NCBI GenBank assembly: GCA_041677685.1
Contig: JBAYPN010000038.1
Coordinates: forward strand, 1 to 5,533
Direction of reading: 5' to 3'
Length of the DNA stretch: 5,533 bases
Source of the DNA: an archaeon
GTDB taxonomy: Archaea > Iainarchaeota > Iainarchaeia > Iainarchaeales > CSSED10-239
In this document: positions 848 through 4,053 of the stretch, in pieces
How positions within the stretch are numbered: position 1 is the stretch's first letter
Layout of the letters: each line of letters starts with the position of its first letter
Program-made: the position numbers and the translations under genes
The notes under the pieces: model-generated
The model's input: only the letters and a program-made list of their open reading frames with translations
Databases searched by the model: none
Told to the model about the DNA's origin: nothing

Positions 848-1223
848 AAAGATAGATTTAAAGAATTTAGATTTAATTATTAAGAAGATATTCTCAGAAA
901 TTATGTCTAAGAAGATAAACTTAGATAAACCACTAAGTGTAAATATACAATTTGTTGAAAATGAAAATCATATAGACTCTTATGAAGACTTAGAAAACAT
1001 TATTGTTGACAAAGACAATCTTTATTTAACACTCTACACCCCCTTTAATCTAAATGAACTTAGGTTTGATGTTCTAGAAGAACAAAGAAAGTTAGTTATT
1101 AAAAGTTATGATTATCAATTTTATAAAGAAATACTTTTAGATGTTTTTGTTCTTAAAAATAGCTTAGAAACAACTTTTAGAAATAATATTTTAGAAATCA
1201 AATTAAAAATTAAAAATATTTAA
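831..1223 (+). CDS. Small alpha-crystallin-domain (Hsp20-like) protein, divergent and minimal
   Basis: 130-aa ORF. Its ATG lies 4 nt downstream of GGGTGG (821-826, SD-like) and overlaps the rnhB 3' end by 17 nt. The C-terminal 70 aa (NIIVDKDNLYLTLYTPFNLNELRFDVLEEQRKLVIKSYDYQFYKEILLDVFVLKNSLETTFRNNILEIKLKIK) follow the alpha-crystallin-domain pattern: D-x-x-E-x-D-x-x-Y, then a beta-strand pair, E-x-I-x-V, L-x-I, Y-x-x-E-I-x-L, and A-x-F/Y-x-N-G-V/I-L-E-I-x-L-P-K. The match is by eye only, and the usual PG and LPK residues are substituted. Confidence 0.5.
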   Translation: MNKKDEKIDLKNLDLIIKKIFSEIMSKKINLDKPLSVNIQFVENENHIDSYEDLENIIVDKDNLYLTLYTPFNLNELRFDVLEEQRKLVIKSYDYQFYKEILLDVFVLKNSLETTFRNNILEIKLKIKNI

Positions 1224-2289
1224 ATAACTTTTCAAAAAAGAAAGCACTTTTTTTAATTACAAATTTTTTATAGTCCTTTCTGTTTGGAGAAAATCTCTCT
1301 TTTAGTTTCTGCCTTGCTTTTTTTAGTTTTTCTTTAGGACCAAAGAAAGTTATCATGTTCTCGTAGGTTATTAAAAAGGAGGTGTGCTCTATGGAAAATA
1401 AGCTATTGATTCTTGAGAAGGGACCAAATTCAAGGGTAAGCTCTACACTTTTTTCTGCTTTTGAGTTTTCAAGGAATAGTTTGTCATTTCCTCCTATGTA
1501 ATCCATGCCTCTTTTTGTTTTTGTGTCTTTTAGGTAGGTATTTTTATTTACTTTTTTTAGTTTTCTTTTATATTCTTTATTTCTTGTATAGATGTTAAGG
1601 GTGTTTCTTTTTGCTGTGCCTGTGTGTAGATCTATAAAGATTACCTCTTTATAGTCTTTGGTTATCTTTTTAATAATTGATTCAAGGTATTTGGTTTCTT
1701 CTTCCTTTTTTGCACCACAATAAGCAACTGTGTTAGGGTAGATGTTTTGTCCTTTTGATGTTGCTCTAATAACTCTTGAGGTTCCAATTTTAATTATTGT
1801 TTTAAAAATATAATAATAATGTAAAAGTTGTTCTGTAAAGTAGGATTTTGCAGGTCTTTGGGGAGACATCATATGTCTATGTTTTTCAATATCGCTTATT
1901 GTTCTTTTATCTAAGTCTATGTTTTCAAAATTATTTATATAATTTCTATTTAGGTCAACATTGTTGTGATTATATCTTCTTAGGTGTCTCATGCCATAAG
2001 GGTTTAGGGAATGGACAAGAGCAATTGAGGTGTGTTCTTTTATTTTTGGAAATATTTTTTTTAAAAAGAGCAGTTGTACAGCTGAACCAGTAAAGCCCTC
2101 TACCCCGTGAGTTCCAGAAACTAGAATTAATAGTTTTTCTTTTTTTTGTGTTTCTAAAAATGCAAAGTCAATTGTTAGATCATCAATTATCTTTTTACTT
2201 TCTAGTTTCAGATTATTTTTAAGAGAAAGTTTTCTAAACTTTTGTCTTGCTTGATAATAATTTTTAGAAAAATATTTTTCGTATTCCAT
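1210..2289 (-). CDS. DUF2817-family M14-like zinc metallocarboxypeptidase / amidohydrolase
   Basis: 359-aa ORF.
- The N-terminal YFSKNYYQARQKF, SGTHGVEGFTGSAVQ and NPYGMRHLRRYNHNNVDLNRNY match the DUF2817 signature.
- The M14 zinc triad is present: HxxE (H61/E64, codons 2098-2109) plus H222 in IDLHTG.
- The NRN carboxylate-binding arginine is present (VDLNRNY).
- A candidate general-base Glu is present in LTLEFG (E287, codon 1429-1431), analogous to TFELR of carboxypeptidase A.
- There is no SD upstream of its ATG. The start is 3 nt after the stop of the small ORF. Confidence 0.85.
   Translation of the reverse strand: MEYEKYFSKNYYQARQKFRKLSLKNNLKLESKKIIDDLTIDFAFLETQKKEKLLILVSGTHGVEGFTGSAVQLLFLKKIFPKIKEHTSIALVHSLNPYGMRHLRRYNHNNVDLNRNYINNFENIDLDKRTISDIEKHRHMMSPQRPAKSYFTEQLLHYYYIFKTIIKIGTSRVIRATSKGQNIYPNTVAYCGAKKEEETKYLESIIKKITKDYKEVIFIDLHTGTAKRNTLNIYTRNKEYKRKLKKVNKNTYLKDTKTKRGMDYIGGNDKLFLENSKAEKSVELTLEFGPFSRINSLFSIEHTSFLITYENMITFFGPKEKLKKARQKLKERFSPNRKDYKKFVIKKSAFFFEKLFKYF
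1248..1254 (+). terminator. Possible archaeal oligo-T terminator for the rnhB/ACD-like transcript
   Basis: A T7 run lies 25 nt downstream of the stop at 1221-1223. It is preceded by an A/T-only inverted repeat: aaaaaag (1234-1240) and ctttttt (1247-1253). It sits inside the 3' coding end of the convergent M14-like gene. The evidence is weak in this composition. Confidence 0.2.
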
Positions 2290-2292
2290 AAT

Positions 2293-2406
2293 TTATTTTT
2301 TAGATTTGTTAAGTCTATGTATTTCTTCTTGTCTTTTTTCTTTTGCTTTTTGTTTTTTGTTTCCTGGTTTTTTAATTATTCTTAATGGTCTAAAAGGTGG
2401 ACTCAT
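2293..2406 (-). CDS. Unannotated small ORF encoding a 37-aa highly basic peptide (MSPPFRPLRIIKKPGNKKQKAKEKRQEEIHRLNKSKK)
   Basis: Hand-translated on the minus strand: ATG at 2406-2404 and TAA at 2295-2293. A canonical SD, AGGAGTG (2414-2420), lies 7 nt upstream of the ATG. The ORF fills the GH3-M14 gap almost completely, with 18 nt after the GH3 stop and 3 nt before the M14 ATG. The peptide has 10 Lys, 4 Arg and 3 Glu. Caveat: Lys-rich short ORFs arise easily in A/T-rich DNA, and I recognise no homologue. Confidence 0.45.
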   Translation of the reverse strand: MSPPFRPLRIIKKPGNKKQKAKEKRQEEIHRLNKSKK

Positions 2407-2413
2407 ATTTTCA

Positions 2414-2420
2414 CACTCCT
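2414..2420 (-). promoter_or_regulatory. Shine-Dalgarno site (AGGAGTG) serving the 37-codon ORF
   Basis: The plus-strand cactcct is AGGAGTG on the minus strand, with a 7-nt spacer to the ATG at 2406. It is complementary to the conserved CCUCC-containing 3' end of 16S rRNA. It is the strongest SD-like element I can see in the window. Confidence 0.55.
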
Positions 2421-2424
2421 GTTT

Positions 2425-4053
2425 TTAATCAATTGTTTTTTCTATCTCAAAATTGTCTCTAAATTTTGATTCTTTGTTTATGTTGATTGGTTTAGGGTTT
2501 CCTGAACCAACAACTCTTTTTTTATTAAATGCATCATAACTTCCTTTTTTAAGAACAGAGATTACTGGGTAATCCATTCTCCCAAACTCGTTTCTCATCT
2601 GCATATAATCATTTATATTTTTTTGAAGATTTTGATCAATCTTTGTTTGAAAGTCTTTAATTTTTTCTAAGCTAACTTTTTCTTCAAGATCTAAAAGAAT
2701 TTCATATCTTGGTTTTTTTGAAAGGTCTTTTAGGTATGGTATTATTGTGTAGTGTTTAATTTTTAAATTTAAGTCTTTAATTGTTTTTTCCATAACCTTT
2801 ACAAGCTCAGTTTCAGGTGCAAGTTCTCCTGCAATATTCAAGAAATTATCTCTATTGTAGAATTTAATTAATGGAACTTTTTTCATAAACCCTGTAACTT
2901 TAATAACATCTCCAATATCATACCTGTAGAGTCCTTCTTGAGTAGTCATTAGCACCCTATATTTTCTATTAAGTTTAAGCTTTTCAATTGTAACTATTTC
3001 TTTTTTATCTTTATCCACATCTATAAATTCAAAAAAGGTAGTGTTAAGTGGTAAGACTCCTGAAACCTTATCCTTTCCAATTCCAATTGAGAGTCTTCCT
3101 TCTGAGGCATTAATTCCTGGGTCTCTGACTTCTATTTTCTTTCCGATTTTTGAAAGTAAGGTGTTAATATACATTTCGTTTGTTTTTGATTTAAAGCAAC
3201 TAACAAGACCTATGTTTGGCCAAATGTCAATTGGTTTAAAGTCTTTTAAAGATTTTAAGTATTCTGCTCTTTTTGGATTTTTTCTTTTAATTATTTTAAT
3301 TAAGGTATCTTTATGTTCTTTGATATAGTCAAAGAATAGAATAGCTTCAATTGGTGCAGTAAAAGCTACTTGTGTAATATTTTCTTGAAGTGCTGAGATT
3401 GCCATTTTTTTTATTTTCTTATTAAAATTAAATTCATTAAATATTTTTACATTTGTTGCAATTTTTGATTTTACCCACCAAGGAGACTTGTAGGCAAGGT
3501 ATCCTGAGATACTTCCATATGGAGTTTTACCTTTTGTCTTACCTTCAAAATATGGTCCTGCAAAGTAAAGGGTTTTTCCTGAAGCAACTGACACATAATC
3601 TTTTAGAACATAGATTGCCCATAATGCAAATTCTTTATTATAATTTTTAATTCTTTGTTTTGTAATTGGAATTAATTTAATTTTATTTGTTGTTCCTGAA
3701 GTTGAGGCAAAGTAGACAACTTTATCTTTTGTAAGGATATTTTGTTCTCCATTTTTTAATCTTTCAATTTCTTGGTCAATGTCTGAAAATTTTATGATCG
3801 GTACATATTTTTGGAATTTTTCAATTGAGTTGACATGTTTAAAATTATATTTTACACCATACTCTGTATTTTTATTTCTTTTTAGAATCTTTAAAAGAAT
3901 TTTCTTTTGGACAAACAGAGGGTTAATGAGTGCATCTTGAAAGTCAACAATTTGTTTGATTTGGTTAAGAATATATTTATAGTTGACAATATTTTCTTTA
4001 ATTTTAGAACTTGTTTCTTTTCTTAGTTTTTTAATCTTTTGAGTAGTGTTCAT
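2425..4053 (-). CDS. GH3-family acyl-acid amido synthetase (ANL-superfamily adenylate-forming enzyme; Pfam GH3 PF03321-like)
   Basis: 542-aa ORF carrying all three GH3/ANL adenylation motifs:
- FASTSGTTNKIKLIP (motif 1, STSGTT at 3688-3705);
- INASEG (motif 2);
- GLYRYDIGDVIKVTGF (motif 3, YRYDIGD at 2908-2928), followed by PLIKFYNRDNFLNIAGELAPETEL.

The N-terminal region TEYGVKYNF...EKFQKYVPIIKFSDI...ERLKNGEQNIL also matches the prokaryotic GH3 N-terminus. There is no SD before the ATG, and a TATA-like box lies about 24 nt upstream. Confidence 0.9.
   Translation of the reverse strand: MNTTQKIKKLRKETSSKIKENIVNYKYILNQIKQIVDFQDALINPLFVQKKILLKILKRNKNTEYGVKYNFKHVNSIEKFQKYVPIIKFSDIDQEIERLKNGEQNILTKDKVVYFASTSGTTNKIKLIPITKQRIKNYNKEFALWAIYVLKDYVSVASGKTLYFAGPYFEGKTKGKTPYGSISGYLAYKSPWWVKSKIATNVKIFNEFNFNKKIKKMAISALQENITQVAFTAPIEAILFFDYIKEHKDTLIKIIKRKNPKRAEYLKSLKDFKPIDIWPNIGLVSCFKSKTNEMYINTLLSKIGKKIEVRDPGINASEGRLSIGIGKDKVSGVLPLNTTFFEFIDVDKDKKEIVTIEKLKLNRKYRVLMTTQEGLYRYDIGDVIKVTGFMKKVPLIKFYNRDNFLNIAGELAPETELVKVMEKTIKDLNLKIKHYTIIPYLKDLSKKPRYEILLDLEEKVSLEKIKDFQTKIDQNLQKNINDYMQMRNEFGRMDYPVISVLKKGSYDAFNKKRVVGSGNPKPININKESKFRDNFEIEKTID

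Follow-up and report, generated by a model that had tools for sequence, protein, structure and literature searches.

The 5,533-nt stretch of archaeal DNA analysed here (the window; contig JBAYPN010000038.1 of the Iainarchaeota assembly GCA_041677685.1) carries on its minus strand a gene for a GH3-family acyl-acid amido synthetase, followed by a gene for a DUF2817 protein, predicted to be an M14-fold zinc amidohydrolase, with a micro-open reading frame (micro-ORF) of 37 aa in between. Within one clade of DPANN archaea, the GH3 and DUF2817 genes stay adjacent, usually with overlapping or nearly touching stop and start codons, even where the flanking genes have changed and DUF2817 identity has fallen to 35%, which supports a functional link between the ligase and the hydrolase. 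With moderate confidence we favour the reading that a small amino-acid conjugate, N-acyl or amide-linked, is the product of GH3 and is cleaved by DUF2817, the two genes forming an operon. The micro-ORF, judged by its sequence, behaves like a genuine, weakly constrained, clade-restricted small gene and is unlikely to be a shared substrate of the two enzymes.

The GH3 gene (4053..2425, minus strand; 542 aa) was identified from the ORF list, from reading the sequence and from its Pfam GH3 N, M and C domains, and ends with the stop codon TAA at 2427-2425. The micro-ORF (2406..2293, minus strand; ORF list and sequence read) lies 18 nt behind it, and the DUF2817 gene (2289..1210, minus strand, 359 aa; ORF list and Pfam) follows after a further 3 nt. 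The compact same-strand arrangement of three ORFs described in the first-pass annotation of this DNA is thus confirmed, and all three ORFs are also predicted by gene callers on public contigs. Likewise, its statement that only the middle ORF has a strong Shine-Dalgarno (SD) sequence holds: AGGAG, read directly at 2420-2416 of the minus strand, stands 9 nt before the micro-ORF ATG, and SD-like purine runs are absent at the GH3 start (aaaaaacaaaaaaacatATG) and at the DUF2817 start (aaaaaataaattATG). Upstream of GH3 two TATA-like elements can be read on the minus strand, ATATATAA at 4108-4101 and TTATATAT at 4092-4085, and form a candidate archaeal promoter. Both are identical in an 87%-identical relative (L095; L numbers denote the loci or contigs of relatives compared, and WIN the window), in which the stretch between the elements and the ATG diverges. 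The TATA-like box of the earlier annotation is therefore present, in fact twice, but as such strings are common in DNA of ~21% GC (the window has 21-33% GC and is AT-rich), a promoter at this position is only plausible.

Conservation and limits of the GH3-DUF2817 pair

The exact DUF2817 protein of the window is present on 19 public contigs, the longest of which adds genes for L35Ae, Nop and fibrillarin and so marks its source as archaeal. Homologues labelled ‘Candidatus ainarchaeum sp.’ in the source records are 74% (GH3) and 42% (DUF2817) identical to the window proteins, and more distant ones are labelled Woesearchaeota or Nanoarchaeia, both DPANN archaea. A GH3 gene was found immediately upstream, on the same strand, of looked-up DUF2817 homologues at 90, 48, 47, 45, 44, 43, 41 and 35% identity, and the order GH3 then DUF2817 was seen in every DPANN DUF2817 neighbourhood looked up. 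In L013/L014 (DUF2817 35% identity) the pair is kept and every other neighbour differs from the window; in L011 and L143 it is kept where UvrB replaces RNase HII on the downstream side. The distance from the GH3 stop to the DUF2817 start is usually short: the genes overlap by 4 nt in L008 and in L013 and by 8 nt in L098 and L151, and are separated by 2 nt in L010 and L150 and by 5-12 nt in the L011 group.

A metagenome scan with the GH3 alignment returned 48 loci. DUF2817 follows GH3 in 16 of the 16 loci of the DUF2817-linked clade that extend far enough, and in 0 of ~12 loci of sister DPANN GH3 clades (39-49% identity). The DUF2817-linked GH3s form one group in a neighbour-joining tree, which suggests a single recruitment, i.e. 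that the pairing arose once, in one DPANN clade. Furthermore, the GH3 and DUF2817 trees are congruent, pointing to co-inheritance of the two genes.

The hydrolase gene is not found beside every related ligase. In L145 (4001-6054; GH3 66% identity) the synteny of PP-loop gene, tRNA-Val, GH3, 124-aa ORF and RNase HII is present without DUF2817 or micro-ORF, so that the convergent 124-aa ORF and RNase HII come directly after GH3; L128 also lacks DUF2817. Among the DUF2817-less DPANN loci no consistent replacement hydrolase was found beside GH3. For the distribution outside DPANN archaea we surveyed 80 DUF2817 loci on one-genome-per-species contigs, 79 of them bacterial or from a Thalassarchaeaceae archaeon. 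In none of these 79 does a GH3 gene lie within 6 kb of DUF2817, the sole linked locus being the DPANN locus L015. Of further DUF2817 homologues at 30-31% identity, L148 has a bacterial-type context without GH3, and L149, where DUF2817 stands at the contig edge, is uninformative. The conserved adjacency asked for in the first-pass annotation thus exists within one DPANN clade, but it extends neither to the non-DPANN loci nor to the sister GH3 clades.

Two further arrangements were seen around the ligase gene. In L008/L009 (2781-6004) and L096 (3501-6724) a tandem GH3 duplication, with copies of 540 and 532 aa 2 nt apart, precedes DUF2817; the first copy is the one with which the window GH3 groups. 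One relative, L150, carries a class IV aminotransferase gene (529-1353; Aminotran_4, E 1.6e-48) 7 nt upstream of GH3, a neighbour that hints at amino-acid chemistry.

Both enzymes look catalytically intact

The GH3 and DUF2817 family calls of the first-pass annotation agree with our Pfam search. The ligase matches Pfam GH3 N, M and C (PF03321, PF23571 and PF23572) with E values of 8e-50, 3e-22 and 6e-12 and scores of 170, 79 and 47 bits; each of the three models has a cut-off of 23.6 bits. Its AlphaFold model (predicted local distance difference test, pLDDT, 85) has the two-domain ANL/GH3 fold, and the top Foldseek matches are all plant GH3 structures, among them Arabidopsis GH3.6 (PDB 9fwd, chain A; E 5e-36, template modelling (TM) score 0.83). 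The family's motifs for nucleotide binding have been defined for AtGH3.11 as SSGT..K, Y.SSE and GLYRY..GD (PMC12493201). In the window protein the corresponding motifs STSGTT..K (S119-K126; S119, G120, T121, T122 and K126), S317-E318 and GLYRY..GD (G374-D382) are invariant among 18 archaeal homologues. The protein is, by these sequence features, a true GH3-family member, and with all three nucleotide motifs kept it looks catalytically intact. Moreover, it is strongly conserved: among the same relatives GH3 shows 73% identity, similar to the NcsA/TtuA-like enzyme (70-73%), and L35Ae (60%), RNase HII (58-64%), Nop (56%), fibrillarin (63%) and DUF2817 (46-48%) are less conserved. That a GH3 enzyme is more conserved than a ribosomal protein in reduced DPANN genomes hints at an important activity that has gone unrecognised. 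To our knowledge, the plant GH3 enzymes are well understood; among prokaryotic ones OlsH alone has been characterised (in 2025), and no archaeal one has been studied.

The hydrolase matches Pfam DUF2817 (PF10994) over profile positions 1-340 of 341 (E 1.3e-60, 206 bits, cut-off 23) and, in part, AstE_AspA_cat (32 bits, cut-off 25). PF00246 (Peptidase_M14) is not among the matches of the window protein at E <= 0.01, and for some DUF2817 relatives precomputed matches to PF00246 exist that are weak or faint. Across 26 aligned DUF2817 members from archaea, bacteria and eukaryotes, H61, E64, H222, N114 and R115 are invariant and E287 is conserved in >=90%. The pattern is that of M14-type enzymes, with an HxxE...H zinc site, a catalytic Glu and an Asn-Arg pair that would clamp a free carboxylate; we take the counterparts of these residues in carboxypeptidase A to be H69, E72, H196, E270 and N144-R145, an equivalence by motif position, not by superposition. 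The enzyme therefore also looks catalytically intact at the level of its residues, and it is a true M14-fold DUF2817 member, not a classical PF00246 carboxypeptidase.

The DUF2817 model (pLDDT 90.8), like that of GH3, is confident but has no close solved relative. Foldseek gives a probability of 1.0 to 3b2y, 4oko, 1kwm, 1cpx, 3fmc and 8eip, with TM scores of 0.34-0.52, and the best fold matches comprise Shewanella ‘putative metallopeptidases’, Francisella REP34, carboxypeptidases A and B, AstE/AspA-family proteins, the cyanophycin dipeptidase CphZ and the cytosolic carboxypeptidase CCP5. At the sequence level, the PDB matches are REP34 and MpaA only, and NCBIfam yields weak matches to MpaA, aspartoacylase and N-acetylornithine deacetylase (20-25 bits against cut-offs of 157-400). 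Helical insertions at residues ~128-210 and ~296-358 are specific to DUF2817. More than 2000 homologues of the family are detectable in bacteria, archaea, trypanosomatids and fungi; our literature search found no paper giving a function for DUF2817 and no characterised member. Directly beside bacterial DUF2817 genes, the commonest gene is one for a DcuC/AbgT-type carboxylate carrier, present in 6 of ~65 loci (L018, L019, L024, L025 and others). No ligase recurs among the 127 immediate neighbours, where only one circularly permuted ATP-grasp and one AMP-binding enzyme were seen.

The micro-ORF between the enzymes

The micro-ORF encodes MSPPFRPLRIIKKPGNKKQKAKEKRQEEIHRLNKSKK, a basic peptide with 10 K and 4 R and an isoelectric point of 11.2, which has no Pfam family. 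In the window lineage a 33-aa version, MSPPLKPMRRIKKPENKKQKEKEKRERLRNSKK, is found in L007/L095; the L015/L143 lineage has versions of 41 aa, MPCLKRTVSKRLQKKPSNKKQEQKEAVEKKLHEYLKKKKNE in L015 and one with four substitutions in L143. An ORF-sized spacer between GH3 and DUF2817 occurs in these two lineages only (WIN/L095/L007 and L015/L143). The enzyme pair is kept without micro-ORF in L008/L096, L010, L098/L109, L099, L108, L150, L151, the L011 group, L013/L125 and L127. The two bearing lineages are sisters neither in the GH3 tree nor in the DUF2817 tree, a distribution that implies at least two losses, or a transfer. A short basic ORF between GH3 and DUF2817 is thus not the recurring feature envisaged in the first-pass annotation.

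Several observations indicate that the micro-ORF is more than a chance frame. Only one of the three frames in its region is open, and a 12-nt indel between the window and the L095/L007 versions preserves it. GGAG at 9-11 nt is kept in the four versions, and the remaining spacer is altered by substitutions and indels. The window and L015 peptides align with a score of 73, against 34 +/- 5.4 for composition-preserving shuffles (z = 7.2; 0 of 5000 shuffles reach it), and the window and L015/L143 peptides have the motif R.xKKPxNKKQ..KE in common; since DUF2817 is only 42% identical between the two lineages, neutral DNA would have been randomised. The ratio of nonsynonymous to synonymous substitution rates (dN/dS), calculated from few sites, is 0.49 for the window against L095 and 0.18 for L015 against L143, compared with 0.07 for GH3 and 0.09-0.17 for DUF2817. 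The C-terminus differs, being KSKK or NSKK in the window lineage and KKKKNE in the other, and the KSKK ending singled out by the earlier annotation is hence not a conserved feature. The spacer shows no RNA structure (folding z = +0.98), and in the whole window there is no Rfam match at E <= 1. Neither a word-indexed search of 5.8 billion clusters nor a full HMMER scan of 1.84 billion representatives returned a micro-ORF homologue elsewhere.

Given its restriction to two lineages that are not sisters and the lack of any homologue outside them, the micro-ORF appears accessory and dispensable for the pair. It may be seen as a compact case of a small protein gene of young age that two lineages have retained and others have lost. 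In addition, it very likely passes ribosomes to DUF2817, as suggested by the missing SD of DUF2817 and the 3-nt distance; in L015 the micro-ORF and DUF2817 overlap (ATGA). The proposal that the micro-ORF serves solely translational coupling is nonetheless incomplete, as the peptide is conserved between lineages and the micro-ORF is under some selection.

Other small ORFs rich in Lys occur frequently in these genomes, and none of those nearby is related to the micro-ORF. Those near DUF2817 in L008, L011, L013 and L143 show no significant similarity to it (z <= 2.1), and the resemblance of MAPPKPRPIRLI in L011 to the micro-ORF N-terminus is within chance. Comparison with GH3 and DUF2817 proteins gave no convincing sign either that the micro-ORF derives from a second GH3 copy since deleted, or from the ends of flanking genes (Smith-Waterman z <= 2.9 in 16 comparisons).

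Proposed function of the pair and alternative explanations

From the enzyme families and their arrangement we infer that the two enzymes share a substrate, that this is a small molecule, that their chemistries oppose each other and that translation is reinitiated. The conserved unit would be a two-gene operon, GH3 then DUF2817. GH3 would adenylate a carboxylic acid in an ATP-dependent manner and join it to the amine of an amino acid, giving a conjugate with a free carboxylate, and DUF2817, as a cytosolic M14-fold zinc hydrolase, would cleave the same kind of amide and thus serve turnover, correction or recycling of the conjugate. DUF2817, having no ribosome-binding site of its own, would probably be translated by termination-reinitiation from the preceding gene; in the window lineage and one other, a gene for a basic protein of 33-41 aa with a strong SD would have been inserted between the enzymes and would deliver the ribosomes. 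A small molecule is favoured over a protein as the shared substrate. Hints in this direction come from OlsH, from the aminotransferase in L150, from the DcuC/AbgT-type neighbours and from the nearest named, if weakly matching, relatives of DUF2817, which act on small amino-acid conjugates as deacylases or amidases (aspartoacylase, N-acetylornithine deacetylase, MpaA, AstE/AspA and CphZ).

Several points weigh against such a make-and-cleave pair. The opposing chemistry is deduced solely from knowledge at the level of families, and coupled enzymes that undo each other's work would burn ATP unless they are regulated. Sister DPANN GH3 clades and L145 have no adjacent DUF2817, so GH3 function does not depend on the hydrolase. 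The window GH3 scores far under the OlsH equivalog cut-off (98 vs 620 bits), and its strong constraint would also fit a macromolecular substrate. Furthermore, the data fit a sequential relationship equally well: DUF2817 would free an amino or carboxylic acid from scavenged peptides or acyl-amino acids and GH3 would build a different conjugate, a salvage-then-ligate route in a host-dependent archaeon. Tight translational coupling is indeed more typical of pathway partners than of antagonists, the aminotransferase before GH3 in L150 would fit, and the bacterial DUF2817 genes beside carboxylate or aminobenzoyl-glutamate-type carriers suggest a catabolic or salvage role. Since, however, the gene order is ligase and then hydrolase, many DPANN lineages have GH3 alone, and no transporter or other pathway gene is conserved beside the pair, we regard this route as rather unlikely. 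An adjacency without meaning, merely inherited synteny in closely related small genomes with a micro-ORF that is a chance frame in an A-rich spacer, is already disfavoured and appears quite improbable. L15e, the PP-loop gene, RNase HII, L35Ae and Nop are also syntenic among closer relatives, and small Lys-rich ORFs are frequent nearby, but the pair persists where all other neighbours have changed (L013, the downstream side of L011, and L143), and its stop/start codon overlaps are maintained. The z of 7.2, in-frame indel, conserved SD and dN/dS below 1 of the micro-ORF, in a spacer that gave neither RNA structure nor Rfam match, also run counter to it.

If the two enzymes act on a macromolecule, one candidate is the basic micro-protein itself, on which GH3 would acylate lysines or extend the C-terminus and DUF2817 would trim or reverse the modification. 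The micro-ORF does sit exactly between the enzymes in two lineages, it is lysine-rich, with a strong conserved SD and the conserved motif KKPxNKKQ, and other ligase/hydrolase pairs are known to have a small protein as partner, e.g. PafA/Dop/Pup. This peptide-target model of the first-pass annotation is nonetheless very unlikely: at least 10 distinct relatives keep the coupled enzymes without the micro-ORF, the carrier lineages are not sister groups, the large cluster searches found no homologue, the C-terminus varies, and the window-lineage micro-ORF evolves faster than both enzymes (dN/dS 0.49 vs 0.07-0.09). The three-part writer-substrate-eraser module is not supported: its ligase-hydrolase link holds within one DPANN clade, and a substrate gene that travels with it was not found. 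Alternatively, GH3 might adenylate a carboxylate on a protein or tRNA of a neighbouring sulfur relay, such as the C-terminus of a SAMP2-like 60-aa protein or a carboxylated wobble base, with DUF2817 processing or reversing the product. In conservation GH3 equals the adjacent NcsA/TtuA-like enzyme and exceeds L35Ae, RNase HII, Nop and fibrillarin, and three synteny groups have sulfur-relay or tRNA-thiolation genes beside this GH3 clade, namely the SAMP2-like ORF with the PP-loop thiolase, ArsR-NifS-NifU, and ThiI. None of these neighbours, however, is both co-directional and tightly coupled with GH3, given that a tRNA-Val gene and promoter-like spacers lie between the PP-loop gene and GH3, ThiI is convergent and NifS divergent. 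Such neighbours are missing from L013 and from five other synteny groups, the SAMP2 match is below threshold (E 0.028), the sulfur-relay category was picked post hoc, and we know of no GH3 or ANL enzyme that adenylates a protein C-terminus. The neighbourhood pattern is accordingly a low-probability lead, and a sulfur-relay substrate has only a slim chance of being the right one. A further version, with GH3 not as a metabolite ligase but as a stand-alone activator and ligase for a macromolecular carboxylate of the sulfur-relay or tRNA-thiolation system (adenylating, for instance, the C-terminus of the SAMP2-like protein in place of an E1-like enzyme), DUF2817 as the C-terminal processing or deconjugating peptidase and the micro-protein as a lineage-specific adaptor or competing substrate, seems highly improbable.

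Relation to known ligase-hydrolase systems

The small-conjugate reading has a precedent in plants, where GH3 ligases, which make hormone conjugates, are likewise paired with metallo-amidohydrolases of the ILR1/IAR3 type that hydrolyse them. The ligases belong to the same family and fold, as the TM score of 0.83 to AtGH3.6 and the presence of all three nucleotide motifs show, but the window GH3 is only ~20% identical to the plant enzymes. The plant ILR1/IAR3-type hydrolases are of the M20 family, not M14/DUF2817, and their genes are not clustered with GH3.

Among prokaryotic GH3 enzymes only OlsH, the GH3-like lyso-ornithine-lipid synthetase of Planctomycetes, has been characterised biochemically. 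It converts free fatty acid, ornithine and ATP to N-acyl-ornithine and is encoded in an operon with its partner OlsI; archaea are reported to lack ornithine lipids (PMC12493201). The window GH3 is not an OlsH equivalog, scoring 98.5 bits where the cut-off of NCBIfam NF052613 is 620, and it is ~25% identical to planctomycete homologues. OlsI is an O-acyltransferase of the alpha/beta-hydrolase fold, whereas the partner in the window is an M14-fold hydrolase, and no alpha/beta-hydrolase gene was found beside GH3 in any DPANN locus examined. Bacterial GH3 homologues at ~25% identity (P0237; L130, L131, L133, L135 and L141) are either fused to a fatty-acid-hydroxylase-superfamily domain (PF04116) or lie directly 3' of a PF04116-bearing gene that resembles the N-terminal part of P0237, an association consistent with the amino-lipid synthesis described for OlsH.

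On the hydrolase side aspartoacylase/AstE, the Shewanella-type N-acetylornithine deacetylase, MpaA and CphZ share with DUF2817 the HxxE...H motif, the catalytic Glu, the Asn-Arg pair and the M14 core. All matches to these M14-fold deacylases and amidases are weak, however, and the helical insertions are peculiar to DUF2817; on the Shewanella-type N-acetylornithine deacetylase our literature search found nothing. The protein-modifying systems PafA-Dop-Pup, TTL/TTLL-CCP and RimK resemble the pair in combining an amide ligase that depends on ATP with a hydrolase whose chemistry is the opposite and which is encoded, or acts, together with it, and the CCPs also have the M14 fold, CCP5 being among the Foldseek matches of DUF2817. 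Their ligases, unlike the GH3/ANL enzyme of the window, are glutamine-synthetase-like or ATP-grasp proteins, and these tagging systems have a defined protein substrate or tag, whereas the candidate tag gene is missing here from most members. With none of plant GH3/M20, PafA/Dop and TTL/CCP does the window pair share both enzyme families. The literature search found no description of a GH3 + DUF2817 pair, in line with the statement of the first-pass annotation that it knows of no characterised system of this kind; papers in which GH3 and DPANN occur together do not deal with this family and probably mean glycoside hydrolase family 3. The pair thus appears to be previously undescribed; as a variant of the ligase-plus-hydrolase theme it is a modest surprise, and as a coupled unit it provides a functional handle on two uncharacterised groups.

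Genomic surroundings

Beyond the pair, the window encodes a PP-loop NcsA/TtuA-like protein upstream of GH3 (5098..4166, minus strand; ORF list and Pfam) and, on the plus strand, RNase HII (137..847; ORF list and Pfam) and a 130-aa ORF (831..1223; ORF list). The latter overlaps the 3' end of RNase HII by 17 nt and, convergently, that of DUF2817 by 14 nt. Pfam gives no match for it and NCBIfam a weak one to an archaeal Hsp20 model (E 2.9e-5, 24 bits where the cut-off is 140), and in relatives it stays with RNase HII, not with the GH3-DUF2817 cassette. PADLOC matched none of the proteins to anti-phage defence.

Just upstream of the NcsA/TtuA-like gene relatives have a conserved ORF of 59-60 aa (L008 1079-1261, L010 2668-2850, L011 2395-2577, L143 1015-1197, L145 2726-2905), one copy of which gives the sub-threshold match to the ubiquitin-like sulfur carrier SAMP2 (E 0.028). 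All copies are without a C-terminal Gly-Gly and end in VIKN, VIKI, IIKF, VIKM or VVVK; no such ORF was found in the window at 5099-5533. Between the PP-loop thiolase gene and GH3, a tRNA-Val(GAC) gene is present in L008 (2684-2758), L010 (4255-4328), L098 (3362-3435) and L145 (3893-3966) and absent from the window and L001; its position implies that GH3 has its own transcription start in those relatives. Among the DPANN GH3 loci without DUF2817, ArsR, NifS (Aminotran_5) and NifU_N genes lie divergently upstream in L112 (1288-3391), L119 and L124, and ThiI lies convergently downstream in L111 (5063-6484).

Finally, L007 is 100% identical to the window from 1 to ~1450, i.e. over RNase HII, the 130-aa ORF and the 3' part of DUF2817, and only 82-95% identical over ~1500-4626; the breakpoint inside DUF2817 reflects either strain recombination or an assembly chimera. 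L095 is 87% identical to the window throughout.

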